From a bacterium (lineage in GTDB: Bacteria > Electryoneota > JAOADG01), in assembly GCA_963681965.1 (NCBI GenBank), contig OY820579.1, forward strand, positions 32,001 to 96,000: a stretch of 64,000 nt of DNA, read 5' to 3'. Of this stretch, positions 32,679 through 41,049 are shown piece after piece. Every line of letters begins with the position of its first letter. Positions within the stretch are counted from its first letter, which is position 1. The translations under genes and the position numbers were made by a program. Below the pieces are notes generated by a model. It saw only the letters and a list, made by a program, of their open reading frames with translations, had not been told where the DNA came from and searched no databases.

Positions 32679-34922
32679 TTAGACTGAAGGAAACTGCCAC
32701 TGCAATAGGCGAGATTTATATTCGCGACAGAAGAGTTCCGCTTCCTGTTTCTTACCGTTGAACATCACGGCATGAATCAACCCAATACCAGCGACAAACT
32801 CGAGTTCGTAACGCAATTCCTGATTGGTTTCGGTCGTGATGGCGAGTACCAGTCGCAGCAATTTGCTGCCATCGGTTTGTGGAATCAGTTTGTATCCATC
32901 ACTTCGAGCCCGCCCACTCCCCGGCAATTCAAGCATCCGCTTCAATTGACTTGCCATCCGGAAACCGTGGACATCGTTTTCCCAAACGTAGTTTCCGAAC
33001 TGCAACGGCAATACCGCAAGTGCCGGACCGAACAGCGATAGCAATCCACTCTTGCCGGAACCAGTGTGATCGGGATCGGCTTCATCCAATGCATCCAAAT
33101 ACCAGTGTCCCGAAGTTTTTACCGCATTCAGAACTTGCTTGCCGTCATCCAATAAAAAGCGTCCGTATAGTCCAGAGCGTATTTTTACGATCACATCGTC
33201 TGTAGTAAATCCGGACGATAACCGGTAATTCCACTCCCCGCCGATAATCGAAAATGGAAAATAATCTTCCAATTTGGTGGGGAATTGAGCAACGAAATCA
33301 GTTATGAGATCGCCCGGTAGCAGCTCTCCCTCAGCCAGATAGTGGGTTTGATTGCCTCGTTTGGCGACGAGACTAGCCCACTTCGCTGACAGCGTTTGCG
33401 CACCGGGATACCAATCCGATTGGAGTTGGACATGGAGATGCGGTTCCGGCGAACGTCCACTGTTTCCGACACGACCGACTTCTTGACCGGCGTTGACATG
33501 CTGTCCGATCGCAACTTTCACGCTGCCATTCTGAAGGTGTGCTAACAAAGAATATTCACCCTTCGAATGATAGATCGAAACGTAGTTTCCGAAGGGATTT
33601 TCGGTATCGACCGTTTGCGGTGGATTGTCGGGAAGATAATTCACGAAAGCAACTACTGTTCCGGCAGCCGGTGCCAGTACCGGTAGTCCGTAACCATAGT
33701 AATCGGTCAAAGAGAGACAAGGATATGAAGCAGATCGTTTATCGCGATCCAGCAACATCAAATCCCAGGCATACTTACCAATTCCATTATGGGTGGGTTG
33801 ACCGTCCACGCTTTGTGTCAGCGTCCATTGTCCGTAGTGCGGCATGCGGAAAGAGGTCAGTGCGTTGCCAGAGGTTCTCCGCCAGCGCCAATATTGCCGA
33901 AGATTACTCTCGGCAGTCCCCACATTCGCCAGTGGATACACATGAATACCCTTTAATATTCCGAGCCGGAAGGGAAAGAGTAGTATTAGAATACCGATCG
34001 CAAAGGGGAAAGCAAGTGGCGGCAGGTCGCTGGGTGCGAGAAAAATCTTCGTTGCAACCGCGAGAACTCCAACCAGCACAGTTCCGAGCAATGCAAAGAA
34101 AATACCGCGCCAATTCGGCAACACAAAAACACCGCACAAAGCTCCAGCCGCGAAAACACAATTGAACGCGGTTAGCGCAGTTTCTTCACTGAATAATTGC
34201 GCATGCACAAAAAGATTAACGAACAGGATTCCGATACCAGCACCGACGACCATCGCAATTGCGGTGATACGGGTTCCGAGCAGGATCCCGGTTAAAATTA
34301 AGAGACCTGCCAGAACACTGGTCTGGAATGATGTTGCACCGATCACCCTAAGAAATAAATTCACCATATCGGGTAATCGCGCAGTTAAATGCTCATTGAG
34401 AGCGAGCAACCACGGAATGTAGTTTTCACTATGTGCCTGACTTATCGGGATCCGCGATTGTGGTACCATCCGCGTCGATAAAAGCCCCACCCAACTAGCC
34501 AACACAAAGGGTAATGCCGTAGCGGACAAACCGTATTGCCAGCCCAACCAACTGGTCAACATAGCACAGAGGACTGCGGCAAAGATCGCAGCAAGTGGTA
34601 CTAAAAAGAGCATCGAAAGGGACGGCGACAGATAGAGCGAAAGCGCCAATCCGGTTAACAAACCCGCCGCTCCAAAAATACCGGCACGGAAGTAAGCACG
34701 GTCGGCGAAATACAACTTTGCAAAGAGATGGGCAGAAAGCGCACCGAGTAAACCGTAAAATCCGTGGTGAAGTTGGAGAAAAGTGGCTGCTAAAAATAGG
34801 AGACCGGTGCGACGGCGACCGGTAAATAGAACGGCTCCATAGGCAGTGAGAAGATCGTTAATCAGCTCGCGCAACACTTGGAGCCGATTAGATTTGAGAA
34901 CGCTGCCGGTTGCATCACTCAA
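32679..34922 (-). CDS. Urea-transporter-family membrane domain fused to an M23 peptidase and an unknown C-terminal domain
   Basis: About 10 TM segments with two LPF/FPF repeats; TH...WD, GNYV...AHL, GNSGRSPEPHLHVQ. Confidence 0.85.
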   Translation of the reverse strand: MSDATGSVLKSNRLQVLRELINDLLTAYGAVLFTGRRRTGLLFLAATFLQLHHGFYGLLGALSAHLFAKLYFADRAYFRAGIFGAAGLLTGLALSLYLSPSLSMLFLVPLAAIFAAVLCAMLTSWLGWQYGLSATALPFVLASWVGLLSTRMVPQSRIPISQAHSENYIPWLLALNEHLTARLPDMVNLFLRVIGATSFQTSVLAGLLILTGILLGTRITAIAMVVGAGIGILFVNLFVHAQLFSEETALTAFNCVFAAGALCGVFVLPNWRGIFFALLGTVLVGVLAVATKIFLAPSDLPPLAFPFAIGILILLFPFRLGILKGIHVYPLANVGTAESNLRQYWRWRRTSGNALTSFRMPHYGQWTLTQSVDGQPTHNGIGKYAWDLMLLDRDKRSASYPCLSLTDYYGYGLPVLAPAAGTVVAFVNYLPDNPPQTVDTENPFGNYVSIYHSKGEYSLLAHLQNGSVKVAIGQHVNAGQEVGRVGNSGRSPEPHLHVQLQSDWYPGAQTLSAKWASLVAKRGNQTHYLAEGELLPGDLITDFVAQFPTKLEDYFPFSIIGGEWNYRLSSGFTTDDVIVKIRSGLYGRFLLDDGKQVLNAVKTSGHWYLDALDEADPDHTGSGKSGLLSLFGPALAVLPLQFGNYVWENDVHGFRMASQLKRMLELPGSGRARSDGYKLIPQTDGSKLLRLVLAITTETNQELRYELEFVAGIGLIHAVMFNGKKQEAELFCREYKSRLLQWQFPSV

Positions 34923-34934
34923 GGGTAATGTCTT

Positions 34935-35060
34935 TCAATTCACCAACACTGCGCGATATCGTACAGAATTGGATCTTACCTGTGCTATTTCGTCCGCTTC
35001 ATCTTGCCGGAGTAATAATGTTACACTTGGTTCTTGAGCGGTTTGGACAGCAAATTTCAT
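34935..35060 (-). CDS. Putative 41-aa peptide inside the RRE cluster (absent from ORF track)
   Basis: MKFAVQTAQEPSVTLLLRQDEADEIAQVRSNSVRYRAVLVN; occupies 126 of the 145 intergenic bp; weak RBS. Confidence 0.4.
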   Translation of the reverse strand: MKFAVQTAQEPSVTLLLRQDEADEIAQVRSNSVRYRAVLVN

Positions 35061-35067
35061 CTCGTAC

Positions 35068-36450
35068 TCACTTTCGGAGATGTTCCGGTAGTTGATCGAG
35101 TTGCTTCCAATATTCGACAGTTTCCGCTTTGCGAACGATGTGTGTCTCGCCTTGTTCGTCGATTAAAATTACTGGCGGTCGTGTATGAATAAACTGCGTC
35201 GACTGGGTAAAATTGTATGCCCCGATGTTGCGGACGACTAAATGATCGCCGGTACGCATCTGCGGTAATGAGGTATCGTGACTCAACACGTCGATGTTCA
35301 TGCACAGATTTCCGAGGATCGTGGTTCCCTCGGTCATGACGCCGGTTTCCGCCGAAGCCCGCATATCGTACTTATACCAGTAAACATTCGAGAGCAAATT
35401 GATGCCGGCATCGACTACGATCGCTTTCCGATCGCCACTTAACCGCCGTTGACTGACGACAGTGGTAACCATGTGCATCGACTCGTCCACCATCGCTCGA
35501 CCGTGTTCGAACATTAACAGTGGCAACTCGTCGGTAGAGAACGGACCTTGCAATAGTATCGGACAAATTGCTTCGGCATACATATTGAAATCCGGGCAGG
35601 ACTGCTCACCCGGCAACCAAGCGGAATGGAGCGTATTTTTCGATGCAAAGCCACCGCCGAGATCCCAGTATTTGAGCTTTATATCAAAATCGTTGCGAAG
35701 CAGAGTGGCTAACTCGACGATCTTCGTTGCTTGCTGCGAATACATATTGACATCGTCGATGTAGGTTCCAATGTGACAGTGAATACCGACTAATTCGAGA
35801 TGCTGACTATCGACGATTCGCTTTGCGACGGTATAAGCATCGCCGCTTTCGTATTGGAATCCAAAACGCGACCACGGTGGATAGTTCAATTCCAGTGCGA
35901 TACGGATTCCAACTTCGACTTTTCGATTCAATTCGCGCGCAACTTCTTCCATCAAGTAATATTCATCGAAACTATCCAAATTGATAATTGCGCCATCTTC
36001 GACTGCTCGCGTCAAATCCTGACGCGATTTATCGGGACCATTGAAAACGATTTGATTTCCGGGAATTCCGTTTCGTCGAGCCATCTCGTATTCGGTACCC
36101 GAAACGACTTCCGCCCATGCCCCTTCGCTATGCAATGTCATCGTAACGGCATCGAGGTAATTCGTTTTATAACTGTATGCGAGTTGTACTCGAGGATATC
36201 GCGGACCGAAGGCTTGCATCAACATCCGGTAGCGACGCCGGAGCGACGATTCCGAAATCACATACAGCGGCGAACCGTACTTCTTGACCAATTTTGCAAC
36301 CGAGACGCTATCGATCGAACTGTAAGGATAGGCAGAGTGGGGACGACCGTATTTGTTGGTCAATCCGACCACATTGCGAATAATTGTCGGCTTTTCCCAA
36401 AACTCTTTACGAATGGAATCGCCTTCATTCGGGGTAAATTGTCCCGTCAT
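35068..36450 (-). CDS. PLP-dependent fold-type III decarboxylase (DAP/Orn/Arg decarboxylase family)
   Basis: YGSPLYV, YSYKTN (PLP Lys), FNGPDK, HCHIGT, DLGGGF, EHGR, GNLCMNID, GAY. Confidence 0.9.
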   Translation of the reverse strand: MTGQFTPNEGDSIRKEFWEKPTIIRNVVGLTNKYGRPHSAYPYSSIDSVSVAKLVKKYGSPLYVISESSLRRRYRMLMQAFGPRYPRVQLAYSYKTNYLDAVTMTLHSEGAWAEVVSGTEYEMARRNGIPGNQIVFNGPDKSRQDLTRAVEDGAIINLDSFDEYYLMEEVARELNRKVEVGIRIALELNYPPWSRFGFQYESGDAYTVAKRIVDSQHLELVGIHCHIGTYIDDVNMYSQQATKIVELATLLRNDFDIKLKYWDLGGGFASKNTLHSAWLPGEQSCPDFNMYAEAICPILLQGPFSTDELPLLMFEHGRAMVDESMHMVTTVVSQRRLSGDRKAIVVDAGINLLSNVYWYKYDMRASAETGVMTEGTTILGNLCMNIDVLSHDTSLPQMRTGDHLVVRNIGAYNFTQSTQFIHTRPPVILIDEQGETHIVRKAETVEYWKQLDQLPEHLRK

Positions 36451-36452
36451 TA

Positions 36453-37559
36453 TTACTCCTTTTCTCCATGTCCAGCACGATCGTCTCGATAAACGACTTC
36501 ACCATGCACAATCAGTCCTTCCAACGCATCCAATTCACAAATAATATCGACTGCATGTCGAGCGAAAGTCACGCCACTACGATAGTTCGGCAACACTCCG
36601 GGATCTTGTCCCAGTGCCAATTGTAGGTTTGCATACGGTAGATTCTGCCCTGATCCGGTCGTAAGATAGCACCACGATGGAAACCGGGGATTGATTTCAA
36701 TCAGGTAAAACATCCCGCTCTGTTCGTGTCGCATCAATTCCAATTCACAGGGACCGCGCCATTGCAAAGCTTCGATGACTCGTCGCGACAGTTCCAAGAG
36801 TTCGTTATCGCGAATCGTAATCCCTGCCCACGCTTTGCCTTTTTCCGTCAACCGCAGTTTACGCATCGGTACTGCGCCGATTAAATTCCCTTTGCCATCG
36901 CCAACGGCGCAGACATTGTATTCCTCACCGGGAATCATGTTCTGCACCATGATCGGAATACCCCATTTGGCGCGAAGTTTTTCAAAATAGATCACCGCTT
37001 CCGACCAGGAATGCGCAATATATGCTTCGTAGAACACCCCTTTGATTACCGCCGGAAATCCTGTCCGGGCAATGGCTCGATCGAGCGACGGTAGGTCGGT
37101 AACGGTTTCAGTGATTGGAACCGGTAGGTCGTTTTTCGAACAAAACTCGACTAATCGTGCTTTGGAACGCATTCGCAACGATTTCAGATCGGGAATAAAA
37201 GTACCGATCCCCATCGTAGTAAGATCGTCGCGGATCGAATTATACAGATCGAGTTCGGAATCAAGATTGGGGATGATCGCATCAAGTTTCACGCGCGAGT
37301 TGATATAGTGAATTCGATCAAGCGTAACTTCGGCACCCGTGTTGGGATAAGGGATGAGATAAACCTGATCGACGATATCTTTATCGAAGCTTCCAGTATC
37401 ATAGGTGTCGTAAGTCAGACCAATAATCAAGCCATCGTACCCGCCTTGACGAATCGATTTCGCCACAGCGATTCCGGGGGCAGGATTATCGGTCGCTTGT
37501 AATCCGGTGATTGCCACAGCTTTCGGACGAGATGCACTGTAACTATCGCTTTTTATCAT
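36453..37559 (-). CDS. ATP-grasp ligase (CarB/PylC-like)
   Basis: AIIPNLDSEL, FPAVIKG, VQNMIPGEEY, LIEINPRFP; AGAGGA RBS before MIKSD. Confidence 0.9.
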   Translation of the reverse strand: MIKSDSYSASRPKAVAITGLQATDNPAPGIAVAKSIRQGGYDGLIIGLTYDTYDTGSFDKDIVDQVYLIPYPNTGAEVTLDRIHYINSRVKLDAIIPNLDSELDLYNSIRDDLTTMGIGTFIPDLKSLRMRSKARLVEFCSKNDLPVPITETVTDLPSLDRAIARTGFPAVIKGVFYEAYIAHSWSEAVIYFEKLRAKWGIPIMVQNMIPGEEYNVCAVGDGKGNLIGAVPMRKLRLTEKGKAWAGITIRDNELLELSRRVIEALQWRGPCELELMRHEQSGMFYLIEINPRFPSWCYLTTGSGQNLPYANLQLALGQDPGVLPNYRSGVTFARHAVDIICELDALEGLIVHGEVVYRDDRAGHGEKE

Positions 37560-37649
37560 CAGATGCTTCCTCTGCACAATAATCCCGAGCATCGCTTCCG
37601 ATCGAAATTCGGATCACACCGTCGTGAATATCGGCTCTTAAACATTCTA

Positions 37650-37886
37650 TTACAGTAAAGAGAATTTCTTAATTTGTGTCACGAATTGTTCGATATCGAA
37701 GCGTGCTTCACGCTCGTCGACTTCGAACTTATTCATCACATCCCGAAGGATTGAATTCGGTTCTTTCTCAGCCAGCAATTGCTGCATGATATAAGTTCCG
37801 GAATTGTTGAGTGTATAGGTAATGCCGGTAGCATGGTCGAATAAAAACCCGCTTTCGGTCAAGGTAATGCGGTCATTGAGGGGCAT
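37650..37886 (-). CDS. Stand-alone PqqD-family protein / RiPP recognition element (RRE)
   Basis: 78 aa: ESGFLFDHATGITYTLNNSG...KFEVDEREARFDIEQFVTQI (3 strands + 3 helices pattern); GGAG RBS. Confidence 0.88.
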   Translation of the reverse strand: MPLNDRITLTESGFLFDHATGITYTLNNSGTYIMQQLLAEKEPNSILRDVMNKFEVDEREARFDIEQFVTQIKKFSLL

Positions 37887-37997
37887 TCTCCGTCCCATCC
37901 AATCAAGCGAGATTTTCCAATCTCGACATTCTTCGATACAACGGGTACGGCGGTAATACGTTGATTGCAAACAATCCAGTAAGATCGACGACCCGAC

Positions 37998-38189
37998 TTA
38001 AAATATCGCCAGCAGTCTCGACCAATCGACATTTAATCCAAGCAAAGCGCGCTTTTCAGCCAATTGTGCCGTTTCACCATAACCTTCGCGTACGGAACCA
38101 TTGCTCAACGTAACGAAGCTGCGATACTGCTTTCCAAAAACTTCCGTTATCATCGAAATCACGATAACGCGTTCGATTTCTTTTTCCAT
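37998..38189 (-). CDS. 63-aa hypothetical protein
   Basis: GAGG RBS before MEKEIERV; GYGETAQLAEKRAL resembles a dsRBD/HicB-like hairpin-helix. Confidence 0.5.
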   Translation of the reverse strand: MEKEIERVIVISMITEVFGKQYRSFVTLSNGSVREGYGETAQLAEKRALLGLNVDWSRLLAIF

Positions 38190-38304
38190 GGTAACCCTCA
38201 ACGGACTGCTCATTCTTTGCTCCAAGGTCACAGATAGGTATTTATCCGCTCGAGAGACAATACGATTGAAATTACGGTTTAAAACTCCCAAATCAACATC
38301 ATAA

Positions 38305-38865
38305 CTATTCTTCGATCATCGTCTTTAGTCTCGCTACCGCAAAGCTGAAATTCGCCTTCACGGAACCGACGGTTTTCCCGGTCAAACTCGCGATTTCCTG
38401 ATTGGAAAGTTCTTCTTCATGTCGCATAATAAATACCGAACGCTGTTTCGGCGACAATTTCTCCAATGCAGCCTTTAATTGAGCTTTTCGCTCTTTGAGC
38501 ATCACGATCTCATCGGGAATCGGATTATCACTCGGAACGTTCTGGAAAAGATCTTCGTCCTCGCCCCATTCGTCAGTGTTACGAAACACCGCCCACATTT
38601 TCCGACGCCGCATATGGTTCAGCGAAAGATTGTAGACAATCCTAAATACCCAGGATGAGAACGCACATTCGCTTCGAAACCGCGGCAGCTCTTCCCATGC
38701 TTTCAGAAAAGAATCCTGCACCACATCTTCCGCTTCCTGACGATTGCGTAGCAACCGGGTAGCGAGGATCAATGCGCGTTCGCGATGTGCAACCACCAAC
38801 CGATTGAAGGATTGCGTGTCGCCCGACACCGATGCGAGGATTAGTTCTGTTTCGTTCCGATTCAT
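38305..38865 (-). CDS. ECF sigma-70 factor
   Basis: GDTQSFNRLV, AEDVVQDSF, FSSWVFRIVYN, region 4 LSNQEIA...GSVK. Confidence 0.93.
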   Translation of the reverse strand: MNRNETELILASVSGDTQSFNRLVVAHRERALILATRLLRNRQEAEDVVQDSFLKAWEELPRFRSECAFSSWVFRIVYNLSLNHMRRRKMWAVFRNTDEWGEDEDLFQNVPSDNPIPDEIVMLKERKAQLKAALEKLSPKQRSVFIMRHEEELSNQEIASLTGKTVGSVKANFSFAVARLKTMIEE

Positions 38866-39026: not shown

Positions 39027-40154
39027 CTAATCTTGACGCTTATTCCACTTTTGCAATCGATCGCGGATATTTTTCTCAGATATTCCCAGTCTTCTGGCGG
39101 CTTCACTCCGATTGCCATTGGAATCGACTAGCGCTTGCTCGATTAACTTGCGTTCGTACTCTTCCACCAACTCGAACAGATTTTTCGATGGTTCGAAAGG
39201 ATCGGGATTCGATTGCGATTTCCTCTCACTTTCGTCAATTTCAGCCCGATCAGGTTCAATTCGATCAGGAGCATTCACTGAAAGTGTAGTGTTTACCGTT
39301 TCACTTGGTTGATTAAATAGGACCTGATTCTCATCATTATTCTTAATTTCAGACGCTGAAACCGGGAGAATGACCGTTTTTTCGACCGAACCGGAAAATT
39401 GAGGCGGTAAATCCTCTTCATCAATTAAATTTTTTGTCGCTAGAATGACAGCATGCTCGATCGCGTTCTCTAATTCGCGGACATTTCCGGGCCAATCATA
39501 CCGCAAAATTCGCTGCCAAGCTGCCGGAGTCAATCCACGAATTGATTTCTCATTGCGTGTGTTGATGGTTCTGACAAAGAAATCAGTAAGGGGTCGGATG
39601 TCTCGTCTTCGAAATCTAAGTGGTGGAATTTTAATAACTACCACATTCAAACGATAAAAAAGATCCTCTCGGAAAGAACCTTCTCGAACCATTTCCGCCA
39701 AGTTGCGATGCGTAGCCGTAACAATCCGAACATCGACGTTGATCTCTTGCCGACCACCGACCCGATAAAAAGAGTGATCTTGCAGGAATCGGAGAAGTTT
39801 TACCTGAGTATTGGCAGGTAAATCGCCAATTTCATCAATAAACAGTGTCCCTTGGTGAGTTTCTTCGATGAGACCCTTGCGATCATGATCGGCGCCGGTA
39901 AAAGCACCTTTATCGTACCCGAAAAGTTCCGATTCCAACAAGGCTTCGGGGAGAGCGGCACAATTCACTGCGGTAAAAGGACATTTCGCTCGAAATGAAG
40001 AGGAGTGCAAGAGACGAGCAATTAATTCTTTGCCAGTTCCCGATTCACCTTGAATGAGAACGGTCGCAACAGTCGGAGCGACACGTTTGGCAATATTCAC
40101 GACCGATTCAAATTCACCGGATTCGTAAATAATATTTTTTTGCCAATCGCTCAT
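39027..40154 (-). CDS. sigma-54 enhancer-binding protein lacking an N-terminal sensor domain
   Basis: GESGTGKE near residue 36, ESELFG...[15 protein letters not shown]-terminal Fis-type HTH. Confidence 0.93.
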
Positions 40155-40251: not shown

Positions 40252-41049
40252 TTAATTTCTCTTATTCGAGGTGATTCCTATCATTCGGAACAGTTCCCAA
40301 GCGATTTCTTTGGCTTTTTGTCCATAGGCATGATCAGGTGCCCTAATTGTAAATGCAAATACATAAATTTTAGTATCTTGCTCGATCCATCCAACATATC
40401 GACCCATCACCGATTTTCCATCGATCATTTGCGAGCCGGTTTTCCCGTGAAGGATATATGAATTCGTCGAGTCTTGGATCGTGATTGCTTTAACGATGTC
40501 AGTTGAGCGCTTGGAAAATGGGAGTTGATTTCGTGTTAACTCGGTGAGAAATTCGATTTGTTGCCAATCGGAGATCAGTATAGAACCCTTCGATAGCCAG
40601 AAGCGATCAATTCCTGCCGAAATATCGCGGTTTCCATAATGAATTGTATCAAGATATGCCTGCATTCGTGTTTTACCGATGCGGCGAGCTAATTCTTGAT
40701 AGAACCAAACTACCGAATTTTGAATTGCTGTCCGCAGACAATGGTCGTGATTCCAAGAAGTTATGTTATCGGAAACGCCATTCCACTTGATAATTTCTTC
40801 GGGATCGGCAATTGCTCCCGCTTCGAGTGCAAAGATTGAATTGGGGATTTTGAAAGTTGAACAAGGTAGATGGGGTATCGAGCAGCCGGATGCATTCAAC
40901 ACCAGTGTATCGCCGGATGTCAGCTCGACAATCGCACCAGAGGCAGTATAACCATTGAAAAGAGTATCGGTTTTCAGCTCCGAGACCGCATAAACCGAAG
41001 AGGAAATTACGAATAAAAGTCCAATCGAACTGATAAGCAATCGATTCAT
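40252..41049 (-). CDS. Class D beta-lactamase / OXA-like serine enzyme
   Basis: STFK, SVVW, YGN, FWL, KTG; signal peptide. Confidence 0.88.
   Translation of the reverse strand: MNRLLISSIGLLFVISSSVYAVSELKTDTLFNGYTASGAIVELTSGDTLVLNASGCSIPHLPCSTFKIPNSIFALEAGAIADPEEIIKWNGVSDNITSWNHDHCLRTAIQNSVVWFYQELARRIGKTRMQAYLDTIHYGNRDISAGIDRFWLSKGSILISDWQQIEFLTELTRNQLPFSKRSTDIVKAITIQDSTNSYILHGKTGSQMIDGKSVMGRYVGWIEQDTKIYVFAFTIRAPDHAYGQKAKEIAWELFRMIGITSNKRN

Follow-up and report, generated by a model that had tools for sequence, protein, structure and literature searches.

A conserved four-gene cassette joining a PqqD-family recognition protein, an ATP-grasp ligase, a tailed decarboxylase and a channel-fused M23 peptidase

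Introduction

What might four tightly packed genes do together if they encode a stand-alone PqqD-family RiPP recognition element (RRE; RiPP, a ribosomally made peptide that is modified after translation), an ATP-grasp ligase, a pyridoxal phosphate (PLP) decarboxylase and a urea-transporter-fold (UT) channel fused to an M23 metallopeptidase (UT-M23)? The question is raised by a locus at positions 32679-37970 of a 64,000-nucleotide stretch of DNA (the window) from a bacterium of the phylum Electryoneota (assembly GCA_963681965.1, contig OY820579.1, positions 32,001 to 96,000), where all four open reading frames (ORFs) lie on the minus strand. The established role of RREs is to dock free leader peptides. 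A preliminary description, made from the letters of the DNA, had proposed an uncharacterised peptide- or protein-templated ligation and decarboxylation pathway with dedicated membrane processing or export. Here, we report that the cassette is real, conserved, widespread and undescribed in print, and that the candidate template is the disordered N-terminal tail of the decarboxylase itself, whereas a separate leader peptide or carrier was not found.

Results

The four genes form a cassette that recurs across phyla

The preliminary description had placed four packed, co-oriented genes at this locus, and both their coordinates and their Pfam matches bear this out (Table 1). The gaps between the PqqD and ligase genes, the ligase and decarboxylase genes, and the decarboxylase and UT-M23 genes measure 57, 2 and 145 bp, respectively. 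All four proteins exceed the Pfam cut-offs: the small protein matches PqqD (38.2 bits, cut-off 23.4), the ligase matches ATPgrasp_Ter (52.6 bits) and ATP-grasp_3 (30.5 bits), the decarboxylase matches Orn_Arg_deC_N (108.3 bits) and Orn_DAP_Arg_deC (45.6 bits), and the fusion matches UT at residues 24-316 (150.7 bits) and Peptidase_M23 at residues 411-502 (60.6 bits). None of the four attains the cut-off of any NCBIfam model. The longest PqqD ORF spans 37650-37970, and a start at 37886, giving 78 residues, agrees with the alignment of relatives; the ligase and decarboxylase ORFs extend over 36453-37592 and 35068-36450, and the ligase starts in relatives ~20 residues downstream of the longest-ORF start. 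Seven aligned ligases share 58 invariant columns, including E299-I-N-P-R303, and the sole sequence match in the PDB was 2pn1 (E 1.1e-6).

We scanned a species-level genome set (one genome per species) and obtained at least 600 pattern matches, at least 586 of which were confirmed as relatives of the ligase. Among the best 80 of these 586 or more genome loci, the order PqqD, ATP-grasp, decarboxylase, UT-M23 was complete in 62, drawn from many phyla; the remaining 18 held the first three genes (15 loci) or other partial sets (3 loci) and lay mostly at contig ends. Ligase and decarboxylase were adjacent in 79 of the 80, the last (L066) stopping before the decarboxylase. A further 80 metagenome loci, from a scan seeded with distant decarboxylase forms, showed the identical gene order wherever the contig extends, and core genes overlap by 4 bp in several loci. 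Carriers include Ignavibacteria, Bacteroidota, Neomarinimicrobiota, Myxococcota (among them a Sorangium isolate), Leptospiraceae, Lentisphaeria, Planctomycetota and others. The preliminary description had staked its reading on synteny elsewhere, and the four genes are indeed syntenic across phyla, in the 62 genome loci and in the metagenome set. The four-gene arrangement is well beyond chance.

Within the phylum, a close ortholog of the decarboxylase occurs in 9 of 31 genomes (E at most 4e-124), and a full-length UT-M23 ortholog occurs in exactly the same nine, the other 22 yielding generic M23 matches only; these genomes are kin and not independent, and the co-occurrence is a pattern, not a statistic. 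Six relatives were available with 20-kb flanks: five have the four genes in order, and the sixth (G002) has the UT-M23 gene on a separate contig. Existing annotation of the cassette consists solely of "urea transporter" and "hypothetical". A literature search, with supplementary tables outside its reach, returned no description of the cassette, and the accessible portions of two RRE surveys (PMC12710340 and PMC7470986) do not mention the gene set.

The decarboxylase carries a conserved N-terminal tail

The AlphaFold2 (AF2) model of the decarboxylase has a well-predicted body (predicted local distance difference test score, pLDDT, above 90) preceded by 38 residues with pLDDT below 50. In the window, this tail reads K15-E-F-W18-E-K-P21-T-I23-I-R ... 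G29-L-T-N-K33-Y-G35. A tail was present in 75 of 75 cluster decarboxylases, by inspection, and in all 77 metagenomic decarboxylases with a complete N-terminus. All 52 aligned sequences have P21 and K33; the same alignment conserves Y/W/F18, G29 and G35 at 90% or more, position 35 being G in 48 sequences and S in four. The spacing is equally constrained: in the 71 sequences caught by a strict pattern (four more were not caught), the aromatic residue precedes the lysine by 15 positions in 69, and the lysine precedes a GSP motif by 26 in 70. A lysine stands at +15 in 69 of the 77 metagenomic sequences.

The tail resembles known RRE clients. The accessible text of PMC10368454 gives [YWF]xxPx[ILV] as the recognition motif at positions -17 to -12 of lasso leaders, and that of PMC13622209 gives YxxP as the motif of the RRE-bound fosfazinomycin scaffold peptide. 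In lasso-leader numbering, G35 of the decarboxylase becomes +1 and K33 becomes -2; the alignment holds no conserved acidic residue 7-9 positions after G35.

The tag was found in none of four non-cluster fold-III paralogs of the phylum. A six-frame translation of this genome contains the motif once, in the decarboxylase; since a reversed-genome control also gave one match, the weight rests on conservation. When 1.84 billion representatives were searched, 843 proteins matched at E at most 1e-30, and the top group carries the tag.

Searches for a free precursor turned up no candidate. Clustering of intergenic ORFs of 18-100 residues over 87 loci, the set used for all small-ORF and attached-gene counts here, gave only PqqD and antisense shadows; the intergenic gaps hold no conserved sequence; and no stand-alone tag peptide was seen among proteins of 30-247 residues, in a word-based search that short unannotated peptides could escape. 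The C-termini of the core proteins, considered as acceptor sites, are not conserved and were rejected.

The tail is predicted to dock on the PqqD-family protein

The best NCBIfam match of the 78-residue protein is the lasso PqqD chaperone model NF033530 (46.5 bits, under cut-off), and it matches the structure of the lasso RRE TfuB1 (6jx3, E 3.1e-4). Together with the Pfam assignment, this supports the RRE fold that the preliminary description had assigned to it. It is the only match to PF05402 in this genome.

We predicted the complex between decarboxylase residues 1-60 and the PqqD protein, with both partners given as alignments, in three runs alongside three controls. The tail docked with an ipSAE of 0.64 (runs 0.66, 0.64 and 0.64), and the best of the three controls reached 0.02; of 80 solved complexes, 58 attain the mark used for ipSAE, as do 2 of 110 mismatched pairs. 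At least 83% of contacts were common to the runs, with partner pLDDT of at least 79. The predicted interface pairs decarboxylase residues 15-26 with PqqD residues 22-30 and the C-terminal helices, and the residue numbers run in opposite directions, suggesting an antiparallel strand on beta3. The modelling of RRE complexes that the preliminary description had proposed yields a predicted partner, namely the decarboxylase tail. This pass expresses a modelled likeness to lasso RRE-leader complexes and is not proof of binding; docking of the tail by the RRE, taken alone, we consider probable on this model.

The decarboxylase is closer to FigC/FslC than to LysA

The decarboxylase is the only match to TIGR01048 and to PF02784 in this 99.9% complete genome, which also has dapA and dapF. 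However, it scores 238.8 bits against the lysA model TIGR01048 (cut-off 297.9), and its nearest solved structure is the N-citrylornithine decarboxylase FigC/FslC (243.6 bits, 37% identity over about 400 residues), against 159.6 bits for the best diaminopimelate decarboxylase (DAPDC) structure and about 90 bits for BtrK. The NCBIfam FslC model NF041039 gives 263.2 bits (cut-off 500), and no IucA/IucC-type NRPS-independent siderophore (NIS) synthetase was seen among the neighbouring ORFs scanned. The PLP lysine is K95, in a SYKTN motif. The loop C383-M384 is invariant in 52 homologs and equals C354-M355 of FigC, whereas the two canonical lysA genes of the phylum encode C-E and lack the first 38 residues. 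These observations agree with the view of the preliminary description that the enzyme is not simply the genome's lysA.

A lysA-like gene is absent from 17 of the 31 phylum genomes, mostly 93-98% complete with two at 77-79%, and exceeds the cut-off in only two, so the lack of lysA is a group trait and not a gap that this decarboxylase repairs. Lysine synthesis in the phylum is puzzling: this genome has dapA and dapF, and 17 of its relatives miss the lysA-like gene. A LysW/LysX route was considered as an explanation for the missing lysA and rejected, the best TIGR02144 match in this genome reaching 33.1 bits (cut-off 275.6). The decarboxylase may moonlight as LysA.

According to the part of PMC7857480 available to us, enzymes of the FigC clade (SbnH, AcsE, MccE and BtrK) work on amino-acid moieties borne by larger scaffolds, and FslC-type enzymes use free N-citryl amino acids.

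The channel is fused to M23 or, in a sister subfamily, to a sirtuin

The UT domain superimposes on the urea transporter dvUT (3k3f) with Z 42.3 and a root-mean-square deviation of 3.1 over 315 residues. Both pore threonines of the dvUT LTxPF motifs align to alanine, and the protein scores 129.6 bits against the urea-transporter equivalog TIGR03441 (cut-off 274.6). No further membrane helix follows the UT fold. In the M23 domain, 51 sequences show no variation at H378, D387, H462, H495 or H497, and M23 structures match at Z 12-14.6. The last 200 residues form a confident beta-rich AF2 model whose only structural matches, at a borderline Z of about 8, are to lipid-binding and barrel-like sheets; an atlas search returned nothing for this domain at 0.9 or above.

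A protein search for UT fusion partners returned only eight close UT-M23 relatives, which NCBI names "urea transporter". The accessible part of PMC12998343 lists UT plus M23 as a bacterial domain architecture, without context. No proposed function for UT-M23 was found in the literature, in a search that did not cover supplementary tables, including Table S3 of that paper.

A sister subfamily, in metagenome loci L113-L122 and L124, consists of PqqD, two tandem ATP-grasp genes, a tagged decarboxylase and a UT-sirtuin fusion. In eight of the nine variant loci checked, the UT fusion partner is a full-length SIR2 domain (118-145 bits) and not M23, and the ninth has UT only; the fusion lacks the C-terminal beta-rich domain. 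The SIR2 domain scores 138.8 bits against Thermotoga Sir2Tm (1yc5) and retains the NAD-binding GAGxSxxSGIPDFRG motif, the TQNVD and HG motifs and the zinc cysteine pairs. The tails of these decarboxylases lack G35; six of the nine loci have a lysine at +15, one has a threonine there, and two have a lysine at +11 or +17. Directly upstream of the sister cassette, L122 and L115 carry a GNAT-like ORF of ~180 residues and a secreted protein of 840-970 residues.

Sirtuins strip acyl groups from lysine side chains, are unable to cut backbone bonds and require cytoplasmic NAD+, so the channel-fused domain would be cytoplasmic. The job common to the fused SIR2 and M23 domains would most plausibly be to cut an N-epsilon-acyl-lysine bond.

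The cassette lacks a defining feature of each known system compared

Lasso peptide systems are similar in many respects. Like TfuB1 and its relatives (lasso B1 proteins), the cassette has a stand-alone PqqD-type RRE, a YxxPx[LIV] motif with equal spacing to a conserved glycine, a predicted antiparallel docking on beta3, and an ATP-dependent amide-forming enzyme with a peptidase in the operon. However, its "leader" is the N-terminus of a 460-residue enzyme and not a free peptide, its ligase is an ATP-grasp enzyme, and M23 or sirtuin stands in the place of the lasso peptidase. An asparagine-synthetase-like cyclase and a transglutaminase-like B2 protease were not found among the ten neighbouring ORFs scanned, and there is no conserved small ORF and no Asp/Glu acceptor at core positions 7-9. 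The preliminary description had recognised no radical SAM, lasso cyclase, YcaO or pyrroloquinoline quinone (PQQ) enzyme nearby, and Pfam and NCBIfam scans of those ten ORFs likewise revealed none. PQQ biosynthesis differs in that PqqA, PqqB, PqqC and PqqE were not found among the neighbours scanned. Graspetide systems differ in that the cassette has no conserved precursor peptide and its ligase matches ATPgrasp_Ter and ATP-grasp_3 only.

In butirosin synthesis (BtrI/BtrJ/BtrK), as in the cassette, an ATP-grasp ligase adjoins a DAPDC-like decarboxylase; BtrK belongs to the FigC clade and acts on a carrier-tethered residue. In contrast, neither the core genes nor the neighbours scanned encode a carrier-protein domain, we propose an amide on a lysine of the decarboxylase tail in place of a thioester, and the cassette adds an RRE and a channel-fused deacylase. 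With the rhizoferrin enzymes FslA/FigA and FslC/FigC, and with SbnH, AcsE and MccE, the cassette shares FigC as nearest decarboxylase, the C-M loop and an order of ligation followed by decarboxylation; unlike these, it has no NIS synthetase, and its substrate is probably protein-tethered and not citrate-linked.

Pearlins and LysW/AmCP pathways build a small molecule on a ribosomal polypeptide scaffold. For one scaffold peptide, fosfazinomycin FzmZ, the accessible part of PMC13622209 describes such building on a ribosomal polypeptide with YxxP-RRE recognition and peptidase release, which the cassette resembles. Its scaffold is, however, fused to a pathway enzyme, and attachment is proposed on an internal lysine and not at the C-terminus. 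LysW/LysX systems differ further, as no LysX-type match is over cut-off and core-protein C-termini are not conserved. Finally, the channel has the full UT fold of dvUT, but it falls below the equivalog cut-off, its pore threonines are replaced and its operon context is a ligase and a decarboxylase (unlinked in G002); the peptidase domain has all the Zn ligands and catalytic histidines of Peptidase M23. The cassette fails a defining feature of each known system with which we compared it.

Genes attached to and surrounding the cassette

Other genes often travel with the cassette. A TPR protein of ~210 residues directly follows UT-M23 in 53 of the 87 loci, a barrel-like protein of ~275 residues without a Pfam match occurs in 28, an FG-GAP-like small protein with a type IX secretion system (T9SS) tail lies just upstream of PqqD in 35, and a secreted Cys-motif protein of ~150 residues precedes PqqD in 14. 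The TPR and barrel-like proteins that adjoin the cassette elsewhere suggest a passage out of the cell. In FCB-group bacteria, the FG-GAP-like T9SS-tailed neighbour, placed at one locus (L087:7049-7849) between PqqD and ligase, hints that the cassette may be functionally linked to a surface protein.

The cassette in the window has none of these four neighbours. Far from the window, this genome encodes (G000:C1:2859188-2860485) a 293-residue ORF ending in an aromatic residue and, after it, a homolog of the 150-residue Cys-motif protein (38% identity over 109 residues). A tblastn search of this genome with T9SS tails matches well over a hundred places, which implies a very large set of T9SS cargo.

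The ORFs neighbouring the cassette in the window encode an ECF sigma factor, a sigma-54 activator, a class D beta-lactamase-like protein, a methyltransferase, a DHCW cupin and a carboxyltransferase. The ECF sigma factor (38305-38865) is directly upstream of the cassette, with the sigma-54 activator (39027-40154; AAA+ domain and helix-turn-helix, without a receiver domain) beside it, and neither is kept beside the cassette in other genomes. The beta-lactamase-like ORF (40252-41049) reaches 231.6 bits against NF012161, slightly under the cut-off of 250. Two small ORFs flanking or inside the cassette, at 37998-38291 (97 residues) and 34935-35060 (41 residues), match no family and show no conservation among related loci. 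A scan for promoters and terminators gave a number of sites not above that in shuffled sequences.

Table 1. Positions in the window of the four genes and of the domains and tail elements discussed in the text
Feature	Position in window	Strand	Length	Basis or remark
Stand-alone PqqD-family RRE	37653..37886	-	78 aa	Pfam PqqD
ATP-grasp ligase	36456..37592	-	379 aa (longest ORF)	Pfam ATPgrasp_Ter and ATP-grasp_3
Alanine-racemase-fold (fold-type III) PLP decarboxylase	35071..36450	-	460 aa	FslC/FigC-like clade
Disordered N-terminal decarboxylase tail, residues 1-40	36331..36450	-		AF2 pLDDT; missing in canonical lysA
Predicted RRE-docking stretch KEFWEKPTIIRN, residues 15-26	36373..36408	-		Complex model; includes W18-x-x-P21-x-I23
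Lys33 codon, proposed acyl-acceptor lysine, in G29-L-T-N-K-Y-G35	36352..36354	-		Conservation
UT-M23 fusion	32679-34922 (ORF)	-	747 aa	
Urea-transporter-fold channel domain, residues 24-343	33894..34853	-		Pfam UT; structure match
M23 metallopeptidase domain, residues 354-518	33369..33863	-		Catalytic set intact
C-terminal beta-rich domain, residues 548-740	32703..33281	-		AF2 model

Discussion

We propose that the cassette may be a self-templated ligation and decarboxylation machine. The RRE would bind the [YWF]xxPx[ILV] motif in the disordered tail of the decarboxylase itself, and the ATP-grasp ligase would acylate K33 with the carboxylate of an amino acid, leaving the alpha-amino-acid end free. 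The decarboxylase, of the FslC/BtrK clade, could then remove the alpha-carboxylate of the tethered residue, in cis or across the dimer. Lastly, the channel-fused M23 amidase, or the sirtuin in the sister subfamily, would cleave the N-epsilon-acyl-lysine bond, and this release would regenerate the tail and set free, at the pore mouth, a small product that is an amine or an amide. We hold the mechanism in full tentatively, as a leading possibility that stops somewhat short of being probable. The preliminary description was right in calling the pathway uncharacterised, as far as the literature goes; ligation, decarboxylation on a template and export keep the standing of proposals.

Several points weigh against this reading. 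We infer every catalytic step in it, and, unless its product is something more elaborate than a simple amine, working on a tether looks wasteful. The known UT relatives of the channel have a narrow pore. Because lasso RRE-leader complexes have already been solved, the docking model may have passed on its resemblance to them. Neither this genome nor G002 has all parts of the system linked. The lysine has exceptions, too: +15 is P in two of the metagenomic decarboxylases and T, Q, A or S in one each, in two more of the 77 the lysine is displaced by one residue, leaving N and F at +15, a threonine takes the lysine position in one representative, and more distant decarboxylases retain YxPPx[LIM] and not NKFG. 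In P0015, an 871-residue fusion of ligase and decarboxylase, a YxxPxI tag lies in the linker, with arginine at the lysine position.

Some of these exceptions would suit an arrangement in which the tail is a docking tag only: the RRE-tail contact would assemble a metabolon, the ligase would make and the decarboxylase would decarboxylate a free N-acyl amino acid by FslA/FslC-like logic, and the channel-fused M23 or SIR2 domain would act on something else. The YxxP part is indeed more widely conserved than the lysine, the P0015 fusion keeps the tag without the lysine, and the use of free N-citryl amino acids by FslC-type enzymes (PMC7857480, in the part available) offers a precedent. However, a mere tag leaves unexplained the invariance of K33 (52 of 52), the fixed spacings from motif to lysine and from lysine to folded body, and the alternation of an amidase and a lysine deacylase as the fusion partner of the channel. 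We regard this explanation as unlikely, though with a real claim to attention.

The same parts could be read as a writer (ATP-grasp), a reader or adaptor (RRE) and an eraser (M23 or sirtuin), sirtuins being classical regulators. On such a scheme, the tail lysine would receive a reversible acyl mark from the ligase and lose it to M23 or SIR2, the mark regulating the activity or membrane recruitment of a decarboxylase whose free substrate passes through the UT channel. We think a switch of this kind distinctly unlikely: enzymes of the decarboxylase clade use amino acids that are tethered or conjugated, the two tandem ligases of one variant suggest that something is built in steps and not a mark, and nothing points to a free substrate.

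The likeness to lasso leaders raises a further scheme, in which the RRE would guide M23 to cut the tail at 34|35, either activating the decarboxylase or exposing a new N-terminus for the ligase. The distance from W18 to G35 (17) equals that from -17 to +1 in a lasso leader, position 35 is almost always G and otherwise S, one representative has T at -2 as lasso leaders do, and the M23 catalytic residues are intact. The strongest counter-argument is the sister subfamily, where a sirtuin, which does not cut backbone, replaces M23; that subfamily also keeps the lysine without a G at position 35, and no conserved acidic residue stands at positions 7-9 after G35. Leader-type proteolysis thus appears improbable to us.

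A more elaborate form of the self-templated machine, which we consider very unlikely, would have the ligase and decarboxylase work iteratively, each decarboxylation baring an amine for the next ligation, so that a linear polyamide grows on the tail lysine; BtrJ, for its part, ligates twice. The product would be a nylon-like polymer such as poly-gamma-aminobutyrate or poly-beta-alanine, cut off by M23 or sirtuin and threaded via an amide-selective UT-type pore and the TPR and barrel proteins to the cell surface. If true, the cassette would amount to a synthase-dependent secretion system whose polymer is neither ribosomal nor made of sugar.

That the decarboxylase is just the genome's own diaminopimelate decarboxylase among unrelated neighbours, as its being the sole TIGR01048 or PF02784 match in a nearly complete genome with dapA and dapF might suggest, we find scarcely credible given its sub-threshold lysA score and greater nearness to FslC, its C-M in place of the phylum's canonical C-E, its 38-residue tail, its strict co-occurrence with UT-M23, the synteny across phyla and the 17 of 31 relatives without any lysA-like gene.

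The self-templated machine that we favour begins with the tail of the decarboxylase as an RRE client which, if true, would carry RiPP-type recognition over into protein-templated metabolism. The cassette is found in hundreds of species, among Bacteroidota, Ignavibacteria, Marinimicrobia-like bacteria, Myxococcota and others, and it gives a function-linked context to two odd fusions, UT-M23 and UT-sirtuin.

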